Part shown: piece after piece, positions 1 to 23,693 of the stretch | Layout: the number at the start of each line of letters is the position of its first letter | Position numbering within the stretch: the first letter of the stretch is position 1 | Source of the DNA: Planctomycetia bacterium | GTDB taxonomy: Bacteria > Planctomycetota > Planctomycetia > JALXBF01 > JBGPMX01 | Length of the DNA stretch: 23,794 nucleotides | Reading direction: 5' to 3' | NCBI GenBank assembly: GCA_036758585.1 | Contig: DAIOWH010000095.1 | Span: forward strand, 1 to 23,794 | Program-made: the position numbers and the translations under genes | Notes under the pieces: model-generated | The model's input: the letters and a program-made list of their open reading frames with translations, nothing else | Database searches by the model: none | Told to the model about the DNA's origin: nothing

Positions 1-98
1 CACTACGACTTCCTTGGGACCGTAGTGCAGGCGGCCCGCCTGCAATGTCGTCAAAGGAAACCGCAGGCGAGCCGCCTGCACTACGACTTCCTTGGGAG
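1..98. repeat. Nested direct/inverted repeat cluster at window edge, upstream of the first CDS
   Basis: Read directly: 19-nt direct repeat 'cactacgacttccttggga' at 1-19 and 79-97. It flanks two GC hairpins (stem tgcaggc/gcctgca at 26-32/38-44; stem gcaggcg/cgcctgc at 63-69/73-79). 'cactacg' at 1-7 is complementary to 'cgtagtg' at 21-27. The element is cut by the window start, so its full extent is unknown. Confidence 0.35.
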
Positions 99-226
99 GA
101 CATTCTGACGGCCGGCCGGCCGCTCGACAACGCCCGCGCGGCCGGTTAATCTGTAGCCCGTCTGCTGGGTCCTTCCACGGTCAGTACCGATCCATCGAGT
201 GGCACACCAGAAAGGAGCTGCTTCCA

Positions 227-3705: not shown

Positions 3706-4437
3706 CTACTCGCGGATTCGTAGGGCTGCGCAGGCCGCCGAATAGCTCTCGTGCAGCGCGAGCGGCACGCACAAGTCGAGCGAAAGCCAGAGGGGGAGCG
3801 TCGGCAGCAACTCGCCGAGCGCAAGCGGCTCCGGCCACGCCTCGACGCGCGGGCTGTCGACCACGGTTACGGGCCTGTAAGCAATTGCGTACAGGCCGGT
3901 GGATGACTGCCAGGCAGGCCCGCCCGAAATCTGCAGCGATTGCCAAAGGTCGGCGTGCAGATTCGCGATCCGCTCGGTCACCACGTCAATGATGACGAGC
4001 GCCACGCCGTGTTTGAGATACCCGGCGCACTTCGCGGCGAACACCTGGCGACTGGCAGGCCGGTCCTTGTTCGATGGGCTGATCAACTCAATCGCCGCTC
4101 GAAGCTGCGCGCCGCCCAGATCCTCGAACACGCGCACCTCGCACGTGTCTAGGTGGGCGAAGTCCACCGTCGCCGTGATGGTCGGCTGCGGCGGCGCCCA
4201 CACCGCCATCGCCACTCCGCCCTCGGACGCCACCGCCCCTTTCGACTCGACATTCTCCAGCGTGGCCACGTCGATCTCCATCGCCGGACCGAGGCTGATT
4301 TCGGGTTCGGCGAAGTAATTCTCGGGCAGGACGTCCTGGTTCAGGTGCTGGGCGATCGACGTGGCCCATGCATGATGGAATCCCTCCCATCGGCGTGGAC
4401 CTCGCAGCGGCGGATGAAAATGATCGAGAAGCGGCAT
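3706..4437 (-). CDS. DUF4058-family protein (Uma2-related restriction-endonuclease-like fold), function unknown
   Basis: 243-aa ORF. ATG at 4437 with GAGG 5 nt upstream. The sequence MPLLDHFHPPL...IELISPSNK...LVIIDVV resembles DUF4058 proteins common in cyanobacteria and planctomycetes (recognition from memory, not searched). Confidence 0.6.
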   Translation of the reverse strand: MPLLDHFHPPLRGPRRWEGFHHAWATSIAQHLNQDVLPENYFAEPEISLGPAMEIDVATLENVESKGAVASEGGVAMAVWAPPQPTITATVDFAHLDTCEVRVFEDLGGAQLRAAIELISPSNKDRPASRQVFAAKCAGYLKHGVALVIIDVVTERIANLHADLWQSLQISGGPAWQSSTGLYAIAYRPVTVVDSPRVEAWPEPLALGELLPTLPLWLSLDLCVPLALHESYSAACAALRIRE

Positions 4438-4570
4438 ACGAGCCTCGCTAACGTATTGAAGGCATTCTAGCCGTCGACGTTGCCGGAATCAGCCCTTCTC
4501 TCCCAGTCCCAGTTCACCTTGACCATCGCAACCGCGACAAGAGAACTGTGGCTCTCCGCCAATCTTGGAG

Positions 4571-4605
4571 TGCAGGCATCCCGCCTGCCGGATCCTGCAC
4601 CAGTT
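4571..4605. repeat. GC hairpin 'gtgcaggcatcccgcctgccggatcctgcac', same TGCAGGC...GCCTGC family as the repeat at 1-98
   Basis: Read directly: inverted repeat gtgcagg/cctgcac enclosing caggc/gcctg. It lies in the intergenic region between the isomerase 3' end and the DUF4058 5' end. Both strands give short ORFs sharing 'VQASRLP' because of the palindrome. Confidence 0.25.
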
Positions 4606-4683
4606 GTTGGCAAGCGGGACGCCTGCACCCCAATAATCCCCAAAGCTTGCGGAGAGCCAGAACTATGCAACCTCGAAGGAGTG

Positions 4684-5544
4684 TCATCGGCCTCTCTGGT
4701 CCAGCGCAGATTTGAGGTACTTGACGCTCTTCAATACCGCCTTGTGTTCGTCGCCCGACCGCGGGTGCAGGTAGTCAACCTCGACGGCAAGCAGGCCGCC
4801 GTACTTCACTTTCCGCAGGATGCCGAGCACCACGAGAATGTCCACGACGCCCTCGCCGAGCGGCACGCTGGGCCAGAAACTGAATTCCTTGGGGTCGCCC
4901 CGGAAGCTGATCACGTCCTTAACGTGCGTCGCTCGCGTCCAGGGGGCGAGCGTGCGGGCGACCGCCACGGGATCCTCGAACAGGCGGACGTTGTTCGCCG
5001 TGTCCAGACAGACGCCGAGCCACGGCGAGTCGATGTCGCTCATCAGCTCGGCCATCTCGGCGGCGGTGAGGTCGATGTGGTTTTCCATGGCCATGACGAC
5101 GCCGTGGTCGCGGGCCGGAGTGACCAGACTGCGGAGCATGTTGAGCAACCGGCGACGATGCACCGCCCACGAGTTCGGCCGAGTGCGGCGACTGCCACCG
5201 ACGATTCGCATCACCTTCGCGCCCAGCCGCTGAGCCACACCGAGGTGGACCACCAAGTCCTTGGCGGCGGCCCGGTCGGTTCCTGATCGCAACCCGTTCG
5301 GGTGCCCCCACGCCCAGACTCGCTCGAACCCATGTTGATCGAGCGAGTCGCGCAGGCGGCCGACGAGCGCGTCGTCCGGCGGCGGCAGGAAGCAAGACTC
5401 GATCGACACGCCCGCCACGCCGAGCCGTCGCGCGAGCCGCAGGAAATCCCAAACCGTCATGCGACGCCCAGGGTCCGCTTGCAGGCCCGGATACCATTCG
5501 CCGAAGTAGCGATGAAAACAGTACGAGTCGATGGCGAGTTTCAT
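4684..5544 (-). CDS. Sugar phosphate isomerase/epimerase (xylose isomerase-like TIM barrel, AP endonuclease family 2)
   Basis: ATG at 5544 (MKLAIDSYCFHRYFGEW...). Conserved features of xylose-isomerase-like TIM barrels (MENHIDLT, CLDTANN, HVKD). The upstream 100-aa extension of the tracked ORF has no homology and overlaps the intergenic region. Confidence 0.8.
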   Translation of the reverse strand: MKLAIDSYCFHRYFGEWYPGLQADPGRRMTVWDFLRLARRLGVAGVSIESCFLPPPDDALVGRLRDSLDQHGFERVWAWGHPNGLRSGTDRAAAKDLVVHLGVAQRLGAKVMRIVGGSRRTRPNSWAVHRRRLLNMLRSLVTPARDHGVVMAMENHIDLTAAEMAELMSDIDSPWLGVCLDTANNVRLFEDPVAVARTLAPWTRATHVKDVISFRGDPKEFSFWPSVPLGEGVVDILVVLGILRKVKYGGLLAVEVDYLHPRSGDEHKAVLKSVKYLKSALDQRGR

Positions 5545-7230: not shown

Positions 7231-7545
7231 TCTCCCTCCCCGTTGCGGCATTGGTATCTACACAAGTCCGAGACAGGGCCAGCCGCGAAGCGGCGCGAGT
7301 CGATAGCCAGGGGCGCAAGCCGGCTAACGCCCCTGGCTATCGACTCACGTCCCTTCGGGACTAAGTACTGTGCCACATTGAATAGGGTGTGAAATCGGCT
7401 TCGGTCGTTTAACCCGCAGCCGCAGGCGAGGCATGGCTGGCGCTTGTTGTGCCTCGCCTGCGGCTGCGGGTTAAACGAATTCGGACCCCTTTCAATGCGG
7501 AGCGGTACTAAGTTGTGTAGATACCAATGCCGTTGCGGGGAGAGT
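7231..7545. repeat. Inverted-repeat-bounded structured element (candidate MITE or structured ncRNA) in a convergent intergenic region
   Basis: Read directly: imperfect ~30-bp terminal inverted repeats. The left arm (7231-7265) is 'tctccctccccgttgcggcattggtatctacacaa'. The right arm (7513-7544) is 'ttgtgtagataccaatgccgttgcggggagag', with 20 bp perfect. Inside are a 15-bp perfect hairpin (7301-7342), two C(UUCG)G tetraloop hairpins (7349-7361, 7395-7406) and a 27-bp perfect hairpin (7407-7476). A degenerate third copy of the terminal repeat is at 7568-7587. Confidence 0.45.
7407..7476. other. Perfect 27-bp GC-rich hairpin (gtttaacccgcagccgcaggcgaggca / 16-nt loop / reverse complement)
   Basis: Read directly. 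No downstream T-tract, so it is not a canonical intrinsic terminator. It generates mirror ORFs on both strands encoding 'CLACGCGLN'. Confidence 0.7.
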
Positions 7546-9854: not shown

Positions 9855-10424
9855 TCACTTCTTATCCGACGCCTTGCCCATATACTCGTGCGTCTCGGTG
9901 TCGATCTTCACGACCTCGCCGGTCTTCACGAACATCGGCACCTTGATCATCAGGCCGCACGCCAGCTTCGCGTCCTTGCCGACGCTCGCCCCTTTGCCCG
10001 CGGCCGACGGGTCGGCGGTTTCAACGACCTCGTCGGTGAAGTTTGGGGGAAACGTGATGTTCGCGACCTGGCCGTCGACAAACCGAATGCCGAACTCGGC
10101 GTTCTCCTTGCACAGCCACTTGCCGCCGCCCACGACTTCCTCGCTGATTGTCACCTGATCGAACGTCTCCATGTCCATGAAGACGAAGCCCGATTTGTCT
10201 TGATACAGAAACTGGTGCGGTTTCGTCTTGACTTCCGGTTGGTCGAACTGGTCGGCCTCATCAAACCCCTTCTCGACGACGCGGCCGGTGTTCATGTTTC
10301 TCAGCTTCGTCACGAGCACGGGCTTGCGCTGGGCCGTCTTGTGAATGTGGTAATCCTCGACGGTCCAGTTGGCACCCTCGAACCGAATGACGACGCCCTT
10401 CTTGAATTGCCCCGCGTTGATCAT
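9855..10424 (-). CDS. efp: Translation elongation factor P
   Basis: 189 aa from the Met at 10424, with AAGGAAG 8 nt upstream. KOW/OB domain architecture. The KLRNMNTG, VVEKGF and FPPNFTDEVVETADP blocks align to EF-P. The longer tracked ORF N-terminus was rejected. Confidence 0.9.
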   Translation of the reverse strand: MINAGQFKKGVVIRFEGANWTVEDYHIHKTAQRKPVLVTKLRNMNTGRVVEKGFDEADQFDQPEVKTKPHQFLYQDKSGFVFMDMETFDQVTISEEVVGGGKWLCKENAEFGIRFVDGQVANITFPPNFTDEVVETADPSAAGKGASVGKDAKLACGLMIKVPMFVKTGEVVKIDTETHEYMGKASDKK

Positions 10425-10560
10425 GGCGTTCGCTTCCTTGTGCATTGGCGCTGTCGTTGTACACTGCGGATTGTACCAGTCGCTGCTGGGACGGGGGAGC
10501 AAGGATTTGTCGGCGAGTAGGCTGGGGGGTGTGCGACGCACTTTGCGCAGACGTGCGCCC

Positions 10561-10587
10561 GTAGGCTGGGTGCGGCACCCAGCCTAC
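10561..10587. repeat. 27-nt palindromic element 'gtaggctgggtgcggcacccagcctac' (12-bp perfect stem, 3-nt loop), single copy with a degenerate partial copy at 10511-10535
   Basis: Read directly. Identical to the unit repeated 3x at 13829-13943. It lies in the divergent efp/MFS promoter region. Confidence 0.6.
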
Positions 10588-10709
10588 CCGCTACCTGCGT
10601 TGTCCAGCGGGCGACGGCGGGCCTGTTCTGTTACACTGTCGCGGCCCCGTTGGCCCCACGAACTCCACGCCGCGTGTCAACCTGCCTGAACTGAAACACG
10701 AGACGAAAC

Positions 10710-12359
10710 ATGAATCACGAACTTGAACTTGCGTCGGCCCTCCCTGCCGAGGCCGCAGCCCGGCGCGAAGCCACCGGTCGCTGGCTGGCGCTCGCCGCCG
10801 CCCTGTTGGGCTGGATGTTCGATGGGGCCGAGATGGGCGTCTTCTCGCTGGTCGGCCGGCCGGCGGTGAAGGACCTGCTGCGCGGCGCCGACGAGGGCCA
10901 GGTCGGCCTGTGGTTCAACGTGATCATGGCCGGGTTCCTGGTCGGTGCGGCGACCGGCGGAGTCGTGTTCGGTTGGCTGGGCGACCGGATCGGCCGCGTG
11001 CGGGCGATGACGCTGAGCGTGCTGGTCTACGCCGTGTTCACCGGGCTGTGCGGCGTCGCGGCCACCGCGTGGCAGGTCGGCGTGCTGCGGTTCATTGCCG
11101 CGCTCGGCATGGGCGGCGAGTGGTCGCTGGGCGTGGCTCTGGTGATGGAGGTGTGGCCGAACCGGTCGCGTGCGTTCATGGCGGGCCTGATCGGCGCAGC
11201 GGCCAACGTAGGTTATTTGGGCGTCGGCGTGGTCGGACTTGGGCTGATTGAAGTCCTGTCGAGCTTCGAGGTCTGGCTGCGCGGCACGGGGCTGCGCGAT
11301 GAGTGGGTCGCGTCGCTCGTCGCCAACAGCGGCTGGCGACTAATGATGCTGCTCGGCACGCTCCCGGCACTGCTGACATTTTTCATTCGCATCTTCGTGC
11401 CGGAGTCCGAAAAGTGGCAACACGAACAACGGCGCGGCGTCACGTCGAGTTGGGCGACTCGCGACCTGACCGCCGTGCTCGTGGGCGTGGCCGGCCCCGC
11501 GCTGATCGTCTATGCCTGGGCCTGGGACGGCCCGGCGTGGCTGCCGCATTCGCTCGGTGTGCGACTCGCGGCGACGCTTGTCGGCCTCGTCATCGCCACG
11601 GCGGGCTACACCTACCCGGTGATCCGGTTCTTCCAGCGCCAGGCCCAAACTGAGCCGGGCATCGAGGCGGGCCCGACGCTGCGCCGCATGCTGCTGGGCG
11701 CGTGCCTGAGCGGCGTCGCGCTGTTGGGCACGTGGGGTTCGACGCAGCAGGCCCCGTCGTGGGCCGACAAGATGACCGAGGCGGAATTCAACGCACACCA
11801 GAGCCGCGTCGCCAAGACACAGGGTCCCGACGCCGCGGCCAAGCTGGTCCGGCCAAAGCTCAAGGCCAAAGAGTACACACTGATCTGGCTTTCGATCGGC
11901 GCGATCATCGGTACGATCGGGGCCGCTCTGGCCGGCGATTGGTTGGGCCGTCGACCGGCGTATTTCGTGTTATGTCTCGCGTCCCTCGGAACGACGTGGC
12001 TGCTGTTCCTGACCAATGATAGTTACGGACCGAAGTTCCTGATCATGGCGTTCATTGCGGGCGTGTTCACGGCGTCGTTTTACGGCTGGCTGCCACTGTA
12101 CCTGCCCGAGCTGTTTCGCACGAGCGTTCGCGCGACCGGCCAGGGTTTCGGGTTCAACTTCGGCCGCATCCTGGCGGCGATCGGCGTGCTGCAGGTCGGC
12201 AACCTGCTGAAGGTGCTCGACACCGACGTCAAACTCGGTCCGCTCACCATCGCGCATGGACACCCGCTCGCCTGCTCGGCGATCTGCCTCGTCTACCTGC
12301 TCGGCATGGTGCTGATCTGGTTCTGCCCAGAAACGAAAGGTAAGCCGCTGCCGGAGTAG
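10710..12359 (+). CDS. MFS transporter
   Basis: 549 aa, about 12-14 TM segments. It has the MFS signature GWLGDRIGR after TM2 and a long central loop. The tracked ORF was used as given. Confidence 0.8.
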   Translation: MNHELELASALPAEAAARREATGRWLALAAALLGWMFDGAEMGVFSLVGRPAVKDLLRGADEGQVGLWFNVIMAGFLVGAATGGVVFGWLGDRIGRVRAMTLSVLVYAVFTGLCGVAATAWQVGVLRFIAALGMGGEWSLGVALVMEVWPNRSRAFMAGLIGAAANVGYLGVGVVGLGLIEVLSSFEVWLRGTGLRDEWVASLVANSGWRLMMLLGTLPALLTFFIRIFVPESEKWQHEQRRGVTSSWATRDLTAVLVGVAGPALIVYAWAWDGPAWLPHSLGVRLAATLVGLVIATAGYTYPVIRFFQRQAQTEPGIEAGPTLRRMLLGACLSGVALLGTWGSTQQAPSWADKMTEAEFNAHQSRVAKTQGPDAAAKLVRPKLKAKEYTLIWLSIGAIIGTIGAALAGDWLGRRPAYFVLCLASLGTTWLLFLTNDSYGPKFLIMAFIAGVFTASFYGWLPLYLPELFRTSVRATGQGFGFNFGRILAAIGVLQVGNLLKVLDTDVKLGPLTIAHGHPLACSAICLVYLLGMVLIWFCPETKGKPLPE

Positions 12360-12375
12360 AGTCTTACTCGGCAAC

Positions 12376-12396
12376 ATGCGCGCGCCGTGCGCGCAT
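12376..12396 (+). terminator. Hairpin 'atgcgcgc-gccgt-gcgcgcat' just after the MFS stop, followed by further GC hairpins (12404-12460). Weak or putative terminator.
   Basis: Read directly: 8-bp stem followed by 'attcg'. Two related 'gacgctgg/ccagcgtc' hairpins follow. The T-tract is poor. Confidence 0.25.
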
Positions 12397-12495
12397 ATTC
12401 GTGGCCGACGCTGCCAGCGTCGGCACCGGACGCTGGCAGTGTCCGCCACGTTGGGTTGCGGGCGCAGCCAGCGTTAGGGTACGAAAGTTGAGAGT

Positions 12496-12876
12496 TTGAG
12501 CATGGACGAGTCTTTTCCAAGCAGTGTTATGTACGTCATGACGCCGTCCTTGACTGCCTTCCAGTTATGGGCGTTTCCACATGTCATTCTGATCCTGTTC
12601 CCCGTGCTGATCCTTCTGTGTCGCCTACGTCGTTGGCGATTCACGACTCGCGACCTACTCTTGTTCGTTCTCGTGTGCGCTCTGGTGTTCGGTATCACCG
12701 GCAGAGGAGTGGCCCAGGGCTGGCGTGCCCTGGGCGGCAGTAAGCTCGTGCTCTGGTGGTTCGATCACTCCGCACTGACGGGGTTTGGTGCATTGATCGT
12801 GTCCGCACTGGCTACAGCGTTGTGCTGGCGTTGCTCCGCCTGGTCGGCCGGTCAGTCCATCAAGGAGAGGAAGTAA
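12496..12876 (+). CDS. Hypothetical small membrane protein, lower-GC island
   Basis: 126-aa ORF with two or three hydrophobic segments (ILILFPVLILLC, LLLFVLVCALVFGI, FGALIVSALATAL). The local GC is visibly lower than the surroundings. No recognisable family. Confidence 0.4.
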   Translation: MSMDESFPSSVMYVMTPSLTAFQLWAFPHVILILFPVLILLCRLRRWRFTTRDLLLFVLVCALVFGITGRGVAQGWRALGGSKLVLWWFDHSALTGFGALIVSALATALCWRCSAWSAGQSIKERK

Positions 12877-12877
12877 C

Positions 12878-13081
12878 GTGACCTCAGAAACGCGGCGTGA
12901 GTTCATGGACGGCGTCGGCCGAAACGTGCTGGCCGCGAGTGTCGCGATCGAGTGCCTCGGCGCGCGGACTCGGGCGGCCGCGGCGCCGCCAGAGATGCTC
13001 GCCATCGACACGCACACGGAGAGTTTCTTCTGGCGCAACGCACAGGCCGCCTACAAGTGGCGGCCTCGAACGACCACGTGA
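12878..13081 (+). pseudogene. 67-aa TAT-signal fragment (RREFMDGVGRNVLAASVAIECLGA...IDTHTE), probably the N-terminal remnant of a periplasmic hydrolase
   Basis: GTG at 12878 with AGGAGAGG upstream. Twin-arginine motif and an 'IDTHT' metal-binding start typical of amidohydrolase/TatD-like folds. An early stop leaves too little sequence for a functional enzyme. Confidence 0.3.
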
Positions 13082-13102
13082 CATCACTGTTGTGAGGCCG
13101 CC

Positions 13103-13795
13103 ATGAATCGAATCGCATCCTGGCTTGTACTGCTTTCCTTCCTGACGGTAGAGACCGTGCCCGCTCAGGAGCCGGCCGCGTGGCATGCGACCGGCACGCG
13201 CGGAGCGGTGGCGGCCGGCGGCCAAGGCGCCGTCGATGCCGGCATCCGCGTGCTCAGGGAGGGCGGCAACGCGGCCGATGCGGCGGCTGCGACAATCCTC
13301 GCACTGGCGGTCACTGACGCCACGGCGTTCTGTTTTGGCGGCGAGGCGCCGATCCTGGTGTACGACGCGAAACGCAACGCCGTCGAGGTCGTCGCGGGGC
13401 AAGGCGCCGCACTTCGCCTGGCGACGCGCGATCATTTTGCACAAATGGAAGGCGGCATCCCCGCTCGCGGCGTCGAGCCGGCTGCCGTGCCCGCGACGCT
13501 CGACGCTGTCGTCGTGCTGCTCGATCGGTTCGGAACGAAGACGTTCTCCGAGGTAGCGGGGCCGATGCTGGAGTTGCTCGATCGCGGCGACAAGGACTGG
13601 CACCCGGACCTGGCGCGAACGATTCGCCGGCTCATCGACGCCGAGAAGGCGGCGATAGGCGATCGGCGGCGCGGCCTGCGGCTCGTGGCCGACTATTTCT
13701 ACCGTGGGCCGATCGCCCAGGAAATCGACGCCTGGTGCCGCGAAAACGGCGGACTGATCCGCTACGTGCGAATACGACAAGAATTGGGGCGGTGA
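13103..13795 (+). pseudogene. ggt: Gamma-glutamyltranspeptidase N-terminal fragment (signal peptide plus ~200 aa of PF01019), truncated
   Basis: AGGGGNAADAAAATILALAVTDATAFCFGGEAPILVYD matches the GGT N-terminal core. It ends at ...ENGGLIRYV, about 230 aa, whereas intact GGT is ~550-580 aa. The tandem repeat array begins immediately downstream and no GGT continuation is seen in any frame. Confidence 0.6.
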
Positions 13796-13828
13796 GAACC
13801 CGGTCCCGGACAGCTCCGGGCTCGGCGA

Positions 13829-13960
13829 GTAGGCTGGGTGCGGCACCCAGCCTACGGAAGACCCATTCAGAAGTAGGCTGGGTGCGGCACCCAGCCTACG
13901 GAAGACCCATTCAGAAGTAGGCTGGGTGCGGCACCCAGCCTACGGAAGACCCATTCAGAA
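13829..13960. repeat. Three tandem 44-bp units, each a 27-nt perfect palindrome 'gtaggctgggtgcggcacccagcctac' plus 'ggaagacccattcagaa' (REP/BIME-like)
   Basis: Read directly: units start at 13829, 13873 and 13917 and are identical. They are preceded by 'cggcgagtaggctgg', which is also found at 10511. Confidence 0.8.
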
Positions 13961-14133
13961 GTGCAAGGACAAGATGAATGGCAAATCGTTGTGGAGTGAC
14001 TGCTAAGAAGTCATCGGCGACGAGCAAAGTAATGGCGCAGATTCCCCTGCGCACGGCTGTTTGTTAGGATTACGCCCGATCGGAAAGTCTCGCGGAAGAC
14101 CCACGAAGCCAATACGCAAGGAGTTACGATTCG

Positions 14134-14579
14134 ATGAAAGTGCAAGACTGCGTTAACCTGAACCCGACGCGGATTCGCGCGGGCGCCACGATTCTGCAAG
14201 CGGCCGAGGTGCTCAGCACGTCGCAGGCGAGCGACTTGATGGTGGTCGACGACGACAACAACTTCGTGGGCGTTCTGTCCGAAGGCGATCTGATCCGAGC
14301 GGCACTGCCTCGTTTCGAGGAGGTGTTGGCCCAGGGCGAGGGGCTGTCGGCTGCTCGGGCGATCTTCGAGGAAAAGGGGAGCAACCTGGCGTCGAAGCCG
14401 ATCGCGCCGCACGTGATCAAGAACCCGATCACCGTCGCACCGGGCGACGATGTGCTGGTCGCGGCGACCACGAGATGATCCACAAGCAGATTCGGCGGCT
14501 GCCGGTGGTCCAGGGCGGCAAGCTGGTCGGCACGATCGCTCGGGCCGACGTGTGTCTGGGAGTGCTGCGGACGAGTTGA
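14134..14579 (+). pseudogene. CBS-pair domain protein interrupted by an apparent +1 frameshift near 14475 (ATGA overlap)
   Basis: The 14134-14478 ORF encodes CBS motif 1 and half of motif 2 (...VAPGDDVLVAATTR*). The remainder of the second CBS motif (MIHKQIRRLPVVQGGKLVGTIARADV...) continues in the +1 frame from ATG 14475 to the TGA at 14577-14579. This is either a true frameshift or pseudogene, or a sequencing indel. Confidence 0.55.
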
Positions 14580-14604
14580 TCGCTCGGAGTGTCGGCGTTG
14601 ATTT

Positions 14605-14640
14605 CGAGGCGGCCTGCCGTCACAATGCCGCCTCGTTTGC
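14605..14640 (+). terminator. Putative intrinsic terminator (9-bp stem cgaggcggc/gccgcctcg, 13-nt loop, then TTTGC)
   Basis: Read directly, downstream of the CBS gene. The U-tract is short, so this is weak. Confidence 0.3.
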
Positions 14641-14678
14641 TCGGTGACTGTGCCTTGGTCGATACCGTCGGAGTACGA

Positions 14679-15497
14679 ATGAACGTCAAACGACTCACGC
14701 TCGAAGAGATCGACGACCTGAAGCGACGCTGGACTGAGAAGTATGTCGAGGTGGACGCGAGCCGGCCGGAGCTGAAACGGTTCGCCGGTCGGGCCGGCCG
14801 TGTGATCACGGTGAACATGAGCGGCAAGGCGTTGGTGCAGTTCGACGATGCGGAAGGTTGCGGCTGGGGGCGCTACGACATCGGCCTGCCGTTCCTGACG
14901 CAGGTTGCCGCGCCCGCGCCGGCGGCGAAGAAGCACGAGGCGGCCGAGAAGCCAAAGGCGGAGGCTGCGGCGTCGAGCGGCGCCCCGACCGCGAAGAAGT
15001 CGCCCATCGAACTCATGAAGGAGAAGGCCGCAGCCAAGAAGGCCGCCGAAGCGGGCGCGCCCGCCGAGACGCTGCCGGCCGGGCCGGTCAAGAAATCACC
15101 CATCGAGTTGATGCGCGAAAAGGCCGCGGCAAAGGCGGCGAGTGAAGGCGCGCCGGCCGCCGAACCGGCGACGACGCCGACGGCCAAGAAGTCGCCGATC
15201 GAGTTGATGCGAGAGAAAGCTGCGGCGAAGGTGGCAGGTAGCGGCACGCCCGCCGCCGCTGAACCGGCGACCGCGCCGACCGCCAAGAAATCTCCGATCG
15301 AACTGATGCGCGAGAAAGCTGCGGCTAAGAAGGCCGCCGAGGCCGGTTCCACCGAACCCGCAGGGACCTCAGCCAGCCCACCCGATGCCTCCTCGTCGCC
15401 ACCGGCTGCGACACAAAAGGAAGGTGGACTCTCCAAGATCGAGATGATCCGACAAGCGGCAGCCAAGAAAAAGGCCGAGGAGCAGGGCAAGGCCTGA
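14679..15497 (+). CDS. Hypothetical protein with ~100-aa N-terminal domain and 4-5 tandem ~32-aa Ala/Lys/Pro-rich repeats containing 'KKSPIELMREKAAAK'
   Basis: Met at 14679 (MNVKRLTLEEIDDLKRRW) with GGAG 8 nt upstream. The repeat is visible at both protein and DNA level (period ~96-99 nt from ~14990 to 15340). Confidence 0.65.
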   Translation: MNVKRLTLEEIDDLKRRWTEKYVEVDASRPELKRFAGRAGRVITVNMSGKALVQFDDAEGCGWGRYDIGLPFLTQVAAPAPAAKKHEAAEKPKAEAAASSGAPTAKKSPIELMKEKAAAKKAAEAGAPAETLPAGPVKKSPIELMREKAAAKAASEGAPAAEPATTPTAKKSPIELMREKAAAKVAGSGTPAAAEPATAPTAKKSPIELMREKAAAKKAAEAGSTEPAGTSASPPDASSSPPAATQKEGGLSKIEMIRQAAAKKKAEEQGKA

Positions 15498-20363: not shown

Positions 20364-23300
20364 CTACTGATCCAGTTCCATCGGCGGCGTCGCGACCGGT
20401 GCGGCGGCGGCGGGGAGCCGGATGTTGAACTTATCGGGGTCGGCCAGGAAGAGCTGCCGGCGACCGGCGGCGGCCGGATCGAGCACCAGCTTGTCCTTGT
20501 CGGCGAGTGTGGCCTCGATCGCGTTCAGGTAGAGCCGCAGGCTGGAGATCGCCGGCCAATCGGCGTAGGCGGCGCGTCGCATCGAAAACGCCGCCGCATC
20601 GCCCTCGGCCCGGTACGTCTGATCGGCCGCCCGCGCCTTGGCCGCGGCCAGTTCGCTCGACGCCTCGCCGCTCAGGTCCGGTTTCAGTTCGGCCCAGACC
20701 GCGTCCGTCACCTGGCCATCGTGCCGCGCGAGTCGTTCGGCGGCGGCGGCGCCGGCGACCGTGATGATTTGCTGCTGAAAGTAAGCGTCGGCCTCCTTCT
20801 GCATGCGCTCACGGTCCTTGAACGCGCTCGAAACGTCGTGGAAGGCGTCGACGACTTGCAGCGGCGGGTGCACATCCTGCAGCGCGACGGCACGGACGTC
20901 GACGCCGAGTCGGTAGTCATCGGTGCGTTGTTGCAGTAGCGACCGGGCCTCGCGCTCGATCTCGGCGCGCTCAGCGGTCAGGATATTCCAGAACGCTCGC
21001 CGCGCGGCCAGTTCGCGCAGCACGCCCTCGGCCAGCGACTTGACGACCGAGTCGGGATCGCGCACCTCGAAGAGATATCGCACGATGTCGGCGTCGCCGC
21101 GCCGCACGCTGAACTGCACCACTGCGTTCAGCTCGAGCAGGTTCTCGTCGCCCGTGAAGAGCAGCGACTCGTCCTCGACCCGTTCGATCAGTCCCTCGCG
21201 ATGCGTGCTGGTCCACTCGATCGGCCGCGCCCCTTGGAACGACTCGTCGGTCCGCGTGCGAAACCCCAGTTCGGCCACGCGCACGCGGTCGGGCGCGAAT
21301 CGCTCGACCGTCTCCCACGGCCGCGGCAGCCGGAAGTGCAGGCCCGGCTCGAGCGCGGCGATGAACCCGCCGCAACGTTTCACGACGCCGACCTCGTCGA
21401 GGTCCACTACCGTGACGCCCATCGCCCAGTAGCCGATCACGGCCGCAACCGCCGCCCACGTCGCGGCCGCTCGCGGTTTGCGCACGGCCCAACGGACGGG
21501 CTGTAGCAGCGGATCGAGCGCGGCGCCTGCGCGGCGGGCCAGTTCGCACGCCTGCGATTCGAACCGACCGGCCGCCGATCGTTCCCAGCGCTCGAACCAG
21601 AGCAGGCGCATCGCATTGACCAGCACGAGAAACGAACCGATCTGGTGGTAGATCGCCGCGCCGACCGGGCCCAGCCGTTCCGCCGCAGCGAGCACGATCG
21701 CGACGCCGTTGACGACGAACGCGAACAGCACGATGTTCTGCCGAATCACCCGCACGGTCGCGCGGCTGAGCCGCACCAGGCCGGGCAGCGGGGCGAGCGG
21801 GTCGCCCATCAGGACCAAATCGCCCGCCTCGGCCGCGATGTCGCTGCCCACGCCGCCGAGCGCCAGCCCGACGTCGGCCGATGCCAGCGCGGGAGCGTCG
21901 TTCACGCCGTCGCCGATCATGGCGATGGGAACGCGAGAGGATAGAGGATAGAGGATGGAGGATGGAGGATGGAGGATGGAGGATTGCGCAGAAGCGGTCG
22001 GAGTGTCGTTGCGCGATCCTCGATCCTCTATCCTCGATCCTCTACCATCAACCCTCCTCTTGATCCACTCGGCCTTCTCTTGCGGCAGCAACTCGGCGTG
22101 GAACTCGTCGATGCCGACGGCGCAAGCGACGGCCTCGGCGGCCGGCCGGCGGTCGCCCGTGAGTAGGACGATCTCATCGATGCCGAGGTGTCGCAGCTCG
22201 CCAAGCACGTCGACGGCACCGGCCCGGATCGTGTCGCGCGCGCCGACGAGGCCGATGACGCGGCCGTCGAGCGCGACGGCGAGCGGCGTCTGGCCGGCCG
22301 CGTCGAGTCGCGCGAAGGCCGCGGTAACCTCGTCATCCAGCGTGACGCCCTGCTGCTCAAGCAACCGTCGGTTGCCGACGCAAATCAGAGATTGCTGATT
22401 GCTGATCGCCGATTGCTGATCGCTGACGGTTGACGTCTGACCGCTCGTCCGCGCGACAACTCCTGCGCCGGGGTGGGCCGTGAACTCATCGACGGAGGGC
22501 AGCACGAGTGCGCGTTTGGCGGCCTCGGCGACGATCAAACGACCCAACAGATGTTCGCTACGCGACTCGGCAGCCGCGGCGATCGCGAGCACCTCGTCGG
22601 CCGAGCGCTCGGCGAGCGGGATGACGTCGCCGAGTTGCAGCTTGCCTTCGGTCAATGTGCCGGTCTTGTCAAAGGCGATCGCGCGGACGTGGGCAAGGCG
22701 CTCGAGTGCGGCACCGCCCTTGATCAGGACGCCGCGCCGGGCCAGCCACGCCAACGCGGCCATGATTGCGGCGGGGGTCGCCAGAATCAGCGCGCACGGG
22801 CACGCGACGACCAGCACCGCGAGCGTCGGCATCCAATCGGCGCTCGTCAGGTCCGACCAAGGAGTACCCCAGGTCGTGTAGACCATCGTGCCGGCGGCAC
22901 TCGCGAGCACGACCGGCAGGAACACGCGGGCGAGCCGGTCGGCGATGCGTTCGATCGGCGCCTTGTTCTCTTGCGCCTCGGCGACCAGCTCGATCACCTG
23001 AGCGAGCGTTGTGTCCTCGCCGACCTTGTCGGCCCGCACTTCGAGCGCGCCGAACTGGTTCAGCGTGCCGGCGAAGACCATATCGCCCGCGGCCTTGTCC
23101 ACCGGCACACTCTCGCCAGTAAGCGTGCTCTGGTCCACGGCCGACTGGCCGCCGAGCACCGAGCCGTCGATCGGGACTCGTTCGCCGGGCCGCACCACCA
23201 CGCGCTCGCCGACGTTCAGTTCCGTGATGGCCACGTCGACCTCGTGGCCGTCGCGCAGCACGTGGGCCACGCGCGGTTGCAGTTCCAGGATGCGGCTCAT

Positions 23301-23693
23301 CTCGCGATGCGTGCGGGCGAACGTGATCGCTTCGAGCGATTCGCCGACCATCGCGATGAAGACGACTTCGGCGCCGACCCAGTACTCGCCCAGGATCAGC
23401 GACGCGAGCAGCGCGATGGCCAGCGCGAGGTCCGCTCCCACGTTGCCATCGAACAGCGCAAGCAGCGCCCCGTAGACGATCCGCGCCCCGCCGATCACGG
23501 CCGCGGCGAACGCGAGGTCGAGCCAGCCGAACGGCCGATCTGGCCCGGTGTAACCGAACGCCGCGAGAACGAGGTGTGCGCCGATCAGCACGCCGAGCAG
23601 GATCGTCAGCGCGTACAGTCCCCGAAACGACGGCAGTCGCAGTGCGTCTTCCGGGTCTATCTTGTGCTGCATGTGCATCGGACGGGTACCCAC
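20364..23693 (-). CDS. Fusion protein: CPC-type P1B heavy-metal-translocating P-type ATPase (aa 1-~700, no N-terminal HMA domain) + linker with extra TM helix + C-terminal HflK/C-like SPFH domain (last ~347 aa)
   Basis: One uninterrupted 1109-codon frame. ATPase motifs: TGESVPV (actuator), VVACPCALILATP (TM6 CPC), FDKTGTLT (phosphorylation site), MIGDGVNDAPALA (hinge). The junction is near nt 21596 (…NAMRLLW|FERWERS…). A TM helix AAATWAAVAAVIGYWAMGV follows, then the SPFH domain (GVVKRCGGFIAALEPGLHFRLP…QVVDAFHDVSSAFKDRER…). The stop lies 24 nt upstream of hflK. Confidence 0.8.
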   Translation of the reverse strand: MGTRPMHMQHKIDPEDALRLPSFRGLYALTILLGVLIGAHLVLAAFGYTGPDRPFGWLDLAFAAAVIGGARIVYGALLALFDGNVGADLALAIALLASLILGEYWVGAEVVFIAMVGESLEAITFARTHREMSRILELQPRVAHVLRDGHEVDVAITELNVGERVVVRPGERVPIDGSVLGGQSAVDQSTLTGESVPVDKAAGDMVFAGTLNQFGALEVRADKVGEDTTLAQVIELVAEAQENKAPIERIADRLARVFLPVVLASAAGTMVYTTWGTPWSDLTSADWMPTLAVLVVACPCALILATPAAIMAALAWLARRGVLIKGGAALERLAHVRAIAFDKTGTLTEGKLQLGDVIPLAERSADEVLAIAAAAESRSEHLLGRLIVAEAAKRALVLPSVDEFTAHPGAGVVARTSGQTSTVSDQQSAISNQQSLICVGNRRLLEQQGVTLDDEVTAAFARLDAAGQTPLAVALDGRVIGLVGARDTIRAGAVDVLGELRHLGIDEIVLLTGDRRPAAEAVACAVGIDEFHAELLPQEKAEWIKRRVDGRGSRIEDRGSRNDTPTASAQSSILHPPSSILYPLSSRVPIAMIGDGVNDAPALASADVGLALGGVGSDIAAEAGDLVLMGDPLAPLPGLVRLSRATVRVIRQNIVLFAFVVNGVAIVLAAAERLGPVGAAIYHQIGSFLVLVNAMRLLWFERWERSAAGRFESQACELARRAGAALDPLLQPVRWAVRKPRAAATWAAVAAVIGYWAMGVTVVDLDEVGVVKRCGGFIAALEPGLHFRLPRPWETVERFAPDRVRVAELGFRTRTDESFQGARPIEWTSTHREGLIERVEDESLLFTGDENLLELNAVVQFSVRRGDADIVRYLFEVRDPDSVVKSLAEGVLRELAARRAFWNILTAERAEIEREARSLLQQRTDDYRLGVDVRAVALQDVHPPLQVVDAFHDVSSAFKDRERMQKEADAYFQQQIITVAGAAAAERLARHDGQVTDAVWAELKPDLSGEASSELAAAKARAADQTYRAEGDAAAFSMRRAAYADWPAISSLRLYLNAIEATLADKDKLVLDPAAAGRRQLFLADPDKFNIRLPAAAAPVATPPMELDQ
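21937..22056. repeat. 120-nt palindromic heptamer-repeat element inside the ATPase CDS (7 x 'gaggatN', 29-nt spacer, 6 x inverted 'NatcctC')
   Basis: Read directly. It is in-frame: it encodes GRGSRIEDRGSRNDTPTASAQSSILHPPSSILYPLSS between the LPQEKAEWIKRRVDG and VPIAMIGDGVNDAP blocks, which are contiguous in ordinary P1B ATPases. Confidence 0.75.
22390..22424. repeat. Heptanucleotide tandem repeat (gattgct gattgct gatcgcc gattgct gatcgct) inside the ATPase CDS
   Basis: Read directly. It encodes the low-complexity VSDQQSAISNQQS insert in the nucleotide-binding domain (…GAGVVARTSGQTST[VSDQQSAISNQQS]LICVGNRRLL…). Confidence 0.55.

Follow-up and report, generated by a model that had tools for sequence, protein, structure and literature searches.

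The 27-nt palindrome that is repeated in tandem at positions 13829-13960 of the studied window (the whole 23,794-nt stretch of contig DAIOWH010000095.1 from a Planctomycetia bacterium) most probably represents a repetitive extragenic palindrome (REP) of the GTAG-tagged super-family, the array being a head-to-tail cluster of such REPs and the solitary copy at 10561-10587 a member of the same family; we estimate the probability of this sequence-based assignment as roughly 0.85. The assignment follows from the combined observations that the palindrome is dispersed, that it carries a GTAG head, that a homologue of REP-associated tyrosine transposases (RAYTs) adjoins one of its copies, and that relatives of this RAYT are accompanied by REPs with a like head. 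REPs are short hairpin-forming repeats spread and maintained through a RAYT; the substrates of this HUH/Y1 enzyme are hairpins of single-stranded DNA located beside a GTAG tetranucleotide. GTAG-tagged REPs were defined by Di Nocera, De Gregorio and Rocco (2013; PMC3733652), who found them in the PVC superphylum, including Planctomycetes; the RAYT, or "REPtron", genes are treated by Nunvar et al. (2010; PMC2817692).

The features of the window that are relevant to the palindrome are as follows.

9855-10424, minus strand: efp, start taken from the gene call
10517-10528, plus strand: degenerate REP left arm GTAGGCTGGGGG (11/12), without a matching right arm
10561-10587, no strand: solitary REP copy in the efp/MFS spacer, exact 27-mer
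10710-12359, plus strand: MFS transporter, divergent from efp
13103-13795, plus strand: remnant of a gamma-glutamyltransferase (GGT) gene, 230 codons, matching positions 2-126 only of the 512 in Pfam G_glu_transpept
13811-13828, plus strand: 18-nt lead-in CAGCTCCGGGCTCGGCGA, also present 5' of a REP at the unrelated locus L020
13828-13962, no strand: whole array (Tandem Repeats Finder: period 44, 3.1 copies, 100% matches, no indels)
13829-13855, no strand: first REP copy of the array, exact 27-mer, GTAG-GCTGGGTG-CGG-CACCCAGC-CTAC
13873-13899, no strand: second REP copy of the array, exact 27-mer
13917-13943, no strand: third REP copy of the array, exact 27-mer
14134-14478: CBS-domain gene, 3' of the array

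Each array unit is formed by a perfect palindrome (GTAGGCTGGGTG-CGG-CACCCAGCCTAC) and a 17-nt linker, GGAAGACCCATTCAGAA, which is identical in all three units (13856-13872, 13900-13916, and 13944-13960). Both Tandem Repeats Finder and direct reading thus bear out the earlier note, which had described three identical 44-bp units, each a palindrome plus a 17-nt linker. The 27-mer GTAGGCTGGGTGCGGCACCCAGCCTAC has a 12-bp stem and a 3-nt loop and occurs exactly at 13829, 13873, 13917, and 10561 of the window, with no copy expected by chance (100 shuffles). The further copy at 10561-10587, the degenerate half-copy on its 5' side, and the lead-in cggcgagtaggctgg common to both window sites (10511-10525 and 13823-13837), all claimed earlier, were found as well. 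The longer lead-in CAGCTCCGGGCTCGGCGA is non-coding at L020, and its last four bases are GCGA, by which the palindrome is extended in several other copies (gcga-REP-tcgc). The linker GGAAGACCCATTCAGAA is absent from all other fetched loci, the allelic contig L032 being the exception. The 11-mer CGGAAGACCCA spans the REP/linker junction of each unit (13855-13865, 13899-13909, and 13943-13953) and is found again at 14093-14103, 40 nt upstream of the CBS start codon; there are hints here that the array linker may be partly derived from the CBS leader, or the reverse.

As single-stranded DNA, the 27-mer is predicted to fold into a 12-bp hairpin (-13.2 kcal/mol). The array region, taken as RNA, has a folding z-score of -9.4 relative to shuffled sequence. 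In the predicted fold the second REP pairs with the third, because each REP is self-complementary, and the linkers stay unpaired. All three loops read CGG on the plus strand, i.e., the units are arranged head-to-tail. Such an array would result if one REP was reiterated along with 17 nt of flanking sequence, most likely because replication slipped or hairpin-forming copies recombined unequally.

The metagenome scan used the pattern GTAGGCTGGGTG-N(1-9)-CACCCAGCCTAC and accepted perfect stems only. The palindrome was identified at 31 sites in 29 metagenome stretches, nearly all of them from Ga0185317 and Ga0247727, so the 27-mer is not confined to the two window sites; such confinement would have spoken against a repeat family. 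The flanks of these copies are mostly unrelated, and the few groups of loci with common flanks are allelic or paralogous. The spread over many contigs with mostly unrelated flanks and the presence of an adjoining RAYT homologue support the proposal of the earlier note that these are dispersed palindromes of the REP/BIME type. Almost one-half of the sites (15/31) are located on 11 contigs of Ga0185317, and the window adds four more copies. The exact count of about 15 in Ga0185317 refers to an incomplete genome and to perfect stems only; classical REP families have more than 100 copies. Stems are perfect in every copy found, and the loops vary, CGG and CCG being the commonest and AGG, TCG, TGG, CTG, and CCA occurring as well. 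Clustering was also seen in L004 (three tandem units), L022, L026, and L027 (pairs), and L025 (degenerate units). No direct target-site duplication was apparent in the flanks of the found copies, as would be expected with a Y1 transposase but not with a DDE-type MITE. Among 185,579 species-representative genomes, the scan yielded only two matches, both single copies in MAGs of Steroidobacteraceae; their flanks are unrelated and AT-richer, and we read them as a likely chance convergence of another GTAG REP.

Ga0185317 is treated here as the population of the window, since loci of both co-occur in the same samples. At 99.99% identity, one Ga0185317 contig has a counterpart in the ENA sample ERZ27245623, which also carries a 99.9% identical copy of the window (L032), and JGI 3300009594 and Logan SRR5747427 each contain both the window locus and the locus of this Ga0185317 contig. 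Two further repeat families are common to the window and the Ga0185317 contigs.

Candidate RAYT genes were sought by phmmer in all open frames of the fetched loci, with an approximate E. coli RAYT sequence as the query, taken as a lead only. One match was obtained, in L025 (= Ga0185317_100138; 2586-2206, minus strand). This ORF matches positions 1-89 of the NCBIfam model NF047646 "REP-associated tyrosine transposase" with 94.7 bits (cut-off 80, E = 4.6e-27) and Pfam Y1_Tnp with 1.4e-5, and it contains an HLH (HUH-type) motif. Positions 97-130 of NF047646 (RFWEH...VDYVHWN, with the tyrosine region) are encoded in another frame of the gene, and about 50 C-terminal residues of intact relatives (PVKHGLV...) are missing. 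Because of this frameshift and C-terminal truncation, mobilisation today by the L025 gene is unlikely. The defective gene is identical in four assemblies, possibly partly from the same samples. A perfect palindrome is located 12 nt upstream of the RAYT start codon and is itself preceded by two degenerate units; no REP was found on the 3' side of the gene at this locus. The upstream TPR gene contains an additional in-frame copy of the 27-mer close to its end. The search for a RAYT gene, advised in the earlier note, thus led to a homologue that scores above the NF047646 cut-off and directly adjoins a copy in the same population. An ORF6N-domain gene was also observed near the RAYT pseudogene.

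Intact RAYT homologues of 181-203 aa are abundant in Planctomycetota, and several of them are named "REP-associated tyrosine transposase" in their sources. The closest one, P0125, is 86% identical to the L025 query. The named best matches of both the GGT and the RAYT proteins come from Planctomycetota or Pirellulales MAGs; to judge from these names, the planctomycete probably belongs to the Pirellulales. The L025 pseudogene and the intact relatives with adjoining REPs are arranged as follows.

L025 2096-2710: RAYT pseudogene with frameshift and C-terminal truncation, three REP units upstream, none downstream
P0126 (L038), 72% identity: GTAGGCTGGGCC..GGCCCAGC and GTAGGCTGGGGC..GCCCCAGC REPs on both sides, inverted, heads outward
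P0134 (L042), 68% identity: GTAGGCTGGGGC... downstream
P0137 (Pirellulales MAG, L041), 66% identity: flanked by GTAG-GGTGCGTC REP arrays in both orientations

The REPs beside these intact relatives carry the canonical GTAGGCTGGG head, on one side only. To judge from these loci, the intact relatives show the classical REP-RAYT arrangement, in which the stems are lineage-specific and the GTAG(G) head is common. A literature search for GTAGGCTGGG returned only unrelated papers on animal or cell biology and analytical chemistry. The copies of the studied palindrome would have been spread by the L025 RAYT or by a paralogue acting in trans.

The palindrome shares with the GTAG-tagged REP super-family a short GC-rich stem-loop with a GTAG tag, a length (27 bp) within the 20-40 bp range, dispersed lineage-specific copies with a cognate RAYT adjoining some of them, tandem clusters that include flanking DNA, and occasional in-frame intragenic copies. 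Clusters of units reiterated in tandem with flanking DNA, as well as in-frame intragenic REPs, were described for the super-family (PMC3733652). By the definition given there, the GTAG is at one end of the REP and unpaired, whereas here GTAG and CTAC occupy both ends and are paired, resulting in a fully symmetric 27-nt palindrome, and both strands therefore present an identical tagged hairpin. The low copy number, the state of the linked RAYT, which is a pseudogene, and the location of REPs on one side of it only are further differences. The array resembles E. coli BIMEs in that REPs are clustered between genes at regular spacing with a constant linker. BIMEs, however, alternate in orientation (Y and Z types) and have defined linker motifs, whereas the three array loops all read CGG on the plus strand, the units are head-to-tail, and the identical 17-mer linkers are local flank. 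REPINs, defined as two inverted REPs forming one long hairpin (Bertels and Rainey, 2011; PMC3116915), are likewise a RAYT-associated and vertically inherited family with sequence kept between related organisms, but the array units studied here are direct repeats with non-pairing linkers and most genomic copies are singlets. Rickettsia palindromic elements (RPEs) provide a parallel for palindromic repeats lying in frame inside functional-looking genes, here those for kinase, TPR, and PMT_2 proteins. As first described, RPEs are much longer, roughly 100-150 bp, compared with the 27 bp (9 codons) of the unit considered here, and we know of no report linking them to a RAYT. Short intragenic GTAG repeats of R. 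conorii were equated with RPE-4 and RPE-6 (PMC3733652).

The 27-mer lacks a stop codon in four of its six frames, and at least four independent copies are located within coding sequences, as listed below.

L021: in-frame RLGAAPSL in a kinase-TPR protein
L030: in-frame RLGAAPSL in a kinase-WD40 protein
L009 and L025: in-frame RLGAAPSL in the tails of TPR proteins
L004: three tandem units read through in a PMT_2 glycosyltransferase, as RLGATPSL followed by two QPLGATPSL

In the Pfam-confirmed genes, every embedded copy is read in the RLGAAPSL frame and none in the alternative open frame (VGWVRHPAY). The simplest reading of this single in-gene frame is filtering by tolerance of a small-residue peptide. 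Paralogues lack the peptide at the same positions, and its presence or absence falls in variable linkers. Clean 27-nt indels were not found in the paralogue alignments; in the TPR tail, the REP occupies the place of a stretch of comparable length. A gene of another kind is present on three contigs and contains the 27-mer at an identical position in each (L011 516, L019 8057, and L024 619). Its upstream part resembles, by eye only, an Mrr-type restriction endonuclease (GIDG...IQVKQ motifs), and the reading frame does not cross the 27-mer, so this gene is probably disrupted.

Strain variation was observed at both window sites. In L032 (99.9% identical), the array contains two REPs versus three in the window, and its second linker is 12 nt long (tctcattcagaa). 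The efp/MFS spacer of L032 contains a 182-bp tandem duplication of the REP and the MFS 5' leader:

L032 9672-9880: 182-bp duplication, allelic to window 10555-10708

Several substitutions separate the duplicate copies, of which the second has an extra partial REP, TGGGTGCGGCACTCAGCCTAC; relative to them, the efp/MFS spacer of the window looks like a recombinant collapse of the two. Both sites are thus structurally unstable. Breaks at the palindrome were also seen at other loci. L018 and L005 resemble L009 and L025 on the right flank alone, and the similarity stops exactly at the palindrome. At the array itself, one Logan contig terminates inside the first palindrome. Taken together with the nearby GGT truncation, the polymorphism and the flank breaks support the role of REPs as rearrangement hotspots, which had been put forward as an idea in the earlier note. 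The rearrangements may have proceeded by slippage, unequal crossing-over, or RAYT action.

The solitary REP is located inside the 285-nt spacer of the divergent efp and MFS transporter genes; gene calls and annotation confirm its assignment to a divergent promoter region. The array lies between the GGT fragment and the CBS-domain gene, the region 3' of it being the CBS leader and not the remainder of GGT. In the alignment with the closest homologues, the GGT similarity ends at about 13765, after ...GGLIRY, and the homologues go on with ...DLATHVTRIEEPV.... The first palindrome is 63 nt from this break and 34 nt from the stop codon of the remnant. The array had been placed exactly where the GGT gene is truncated; it is indeed nearby, but it begins 63 nt beyond the end of similarity and thus adjoins the truncation point. 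The final 18 of these 63 nt are the lead-in CAGCTCCGGGCTCGGCGA. A possible tail of another gene in the 63 nt was considered and rejected, since the frame ending in ...SSGLGE-TAG does not belong to a long ORF in either the window or L020. The GGT junction is identical in the independent assemblies L032 and L040, so that the truncation is found in three assemblies; given this agreement and the continuation of the homologues past the break, the truncation is genuine, and the fragment is a pseudogene remnant. REP-associated rearrangement may have contributed to the loss of the remaining GGT gene. The GGT homologues among the 120 listed closest are all shorter than 400 aa, some of them being from megabase contigs. 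A full-length GGT has about 550-600 aa, and the Pfam model has 512 positions. These short relatives possibly reflect fragmentary gene calls or recurrent gene splitting in planctomycetes.

Several other repeats were observed in the window and the fetched loci. A second class of GTAG-tagged REPs occupies window positions 1-100, with GTAG-TGCAGGCG-GCC-CGCCTGCA at 22-44, an inverted partner ending in CACTAC at 85, and a REP tail CACTAC at 1-6. Its linker gacttccttggga is present twice (7-19 and 86-98), and the cluster, which is situated at the contig start, is alternating and BIME-like; no copy of this class was found in the fetched loci. A MITE-like element of about 155 bp (7356-7513) is bounded by the inverted pair actaagtac/gtactaagt and contains a stem of about 27 bp (GTTTAACCCGCAGCCGCAGGCGAGGCA...); copies of about 90% identity are present in L010, three times, and in L031. 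Just upstream of this element, a palindrome with a 19-bp stem (GAGTCGATAGCCAGGGGCG ... CGCCCCTGGCTATCGACTC) is located at 7296-7350. A palindromic element directly 3' of the MFS stop codon (12353-12478) has a 93% identical copy at L008 4869-4994, and its core GCCGACGCTGCCAGCGTCGGC is also found beside the 27-mer in L031. Between two copies of the 27-mer, L009 contains about 500 bp of non-coding sequence (4190-4700) with dense GTCACCGAC and GTCGGTG-type motifs in both orientations, which looks like an iteron or binding-site array. Tandem Repeats Finder also detected a 99-bp unit repeated 2.5 times (80% matches) at 15089-15329, inside ORF 14589-15497, and 7-nt repeats (GAGGATG, 6.9 copies; CGATCCT, 4.1 copies) at 21937-22056, within the minus-strand ORF 20364-23693.

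The strongest rival explanation, which we consider improbable, though it is compatible with a REP origin, is that the host retains the hairpins for a function that does not depend on any transposase, e.g., to protect RNA 3' ends, to attenuate read-through between the GGT remnant and the CBS gene, or as a DNA site that is structural or bound by a protein. Stems are perfect in all found copies though the linked RAYT is a pseudogene, but the search itself demanded perfect stems, so this perfection is partly an effect of ascertainment. The homologous copies in L009 and L025 have stems identical at 24/24 positions, versus flanks of only about 86% identity (left 132/149, right 124/148), and the array region folds far better than its shuffles. 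Against a host function, the copies occur in a divergent spacer, 5' leaders, coding sequences, and beside a pseudogene, and such different contexts argue against one common function. Scanning for intrinsic terminators gave no terminator-like site at 13829-13960 or 10561-10587, where the hairpins are followed by GGAAGACC or CCGCTACC, so the array does not have the form of an intrinsic terminator; the terminating or mRNA-stabilising role suggested in the earlier note is a candidate function. The Rfam search of 10300-14300 at a permissive threshold yielded only sub-threshold hits to unrelated families (precursors of two eukaryotic miRNAs, one IRES, and one cis-regulatory element), all of which were rejected. 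A related and similarly doubtful possibility is that a symmetric REP outlived its transposase and that its hairpins are actively maintained, either by the host or by a trans-acting RAYT of the second REP class; provided that the perfection of the stems is not a search artefact, the hairpins would then be sites at which genes of this planctomycete are recurrently truncated and promoters duplicated. This possibility is suggested by the perfect stems, kept also in the one homologous copy pair with a flank divergence of about 14%, by the pseudogene state of the only linked RAYT, and by the single in-gene frame.

It is very unlikely that the palindrome is an operator of a dimeric transcription factor and the array a site cluster regulating efp/MFS and the CBS gene: the perfect inverted repeat and the copy in a divergent promoter region would agree with this, but other copies lie in frame within unrelated genes and beside a RAYT, the neighbouring genes have no common theme, and a 12-bp arm with a freely varying 3-nt centre is more typical of a hairpin repeat. 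Least credible of all is the explanation by purely local duplication, an assembly artefact, or a degenerate CRISPR-like array, since, although perfect tandem repeats are hard for short-read assembly and a Logan contig breaks off in the first palindrome, the family is spread over many contigs whose flanks are unrelated, the name of the allelic ENA contig (k141_7397) implies k = 141, which exceeds the 135 bp of the array, and two assemblies resolve the array with unique flanks on both sides, the exact copy number per cell being uncertain. A CRISPR array was ruled out by the identical spacers of only 17 nt and by the absence of any Cas family from the Pfam annotations of the genes on the allelic contig.

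With the palindrome taken as a GTAG-tagged REP, the default reading is that the repeat is selfish or neutral and that its hairpins could have incidental effects on the transcripts carrying them. It is mildly unusual in its symmetric double tag, in its stems, which are perfect although the RAYT is dead (in part an artefact of the search), and in its single in-gene frame. The assignment would place a so far unannotated repeat of an uncultured planctomycete in the REP/RAYT system and explain the contig breaks at these sites. In annotation and assembly work, it would be wrong to label the hairpins as genes, CRISPRs, or terminators, and the GGT fragment should be treated as a pseudogene remnant. 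With its symmetric tag, in-frame copies, and decayed RAYT, the family would be a modest addition to the biology of REPs outside Proteobacteria.
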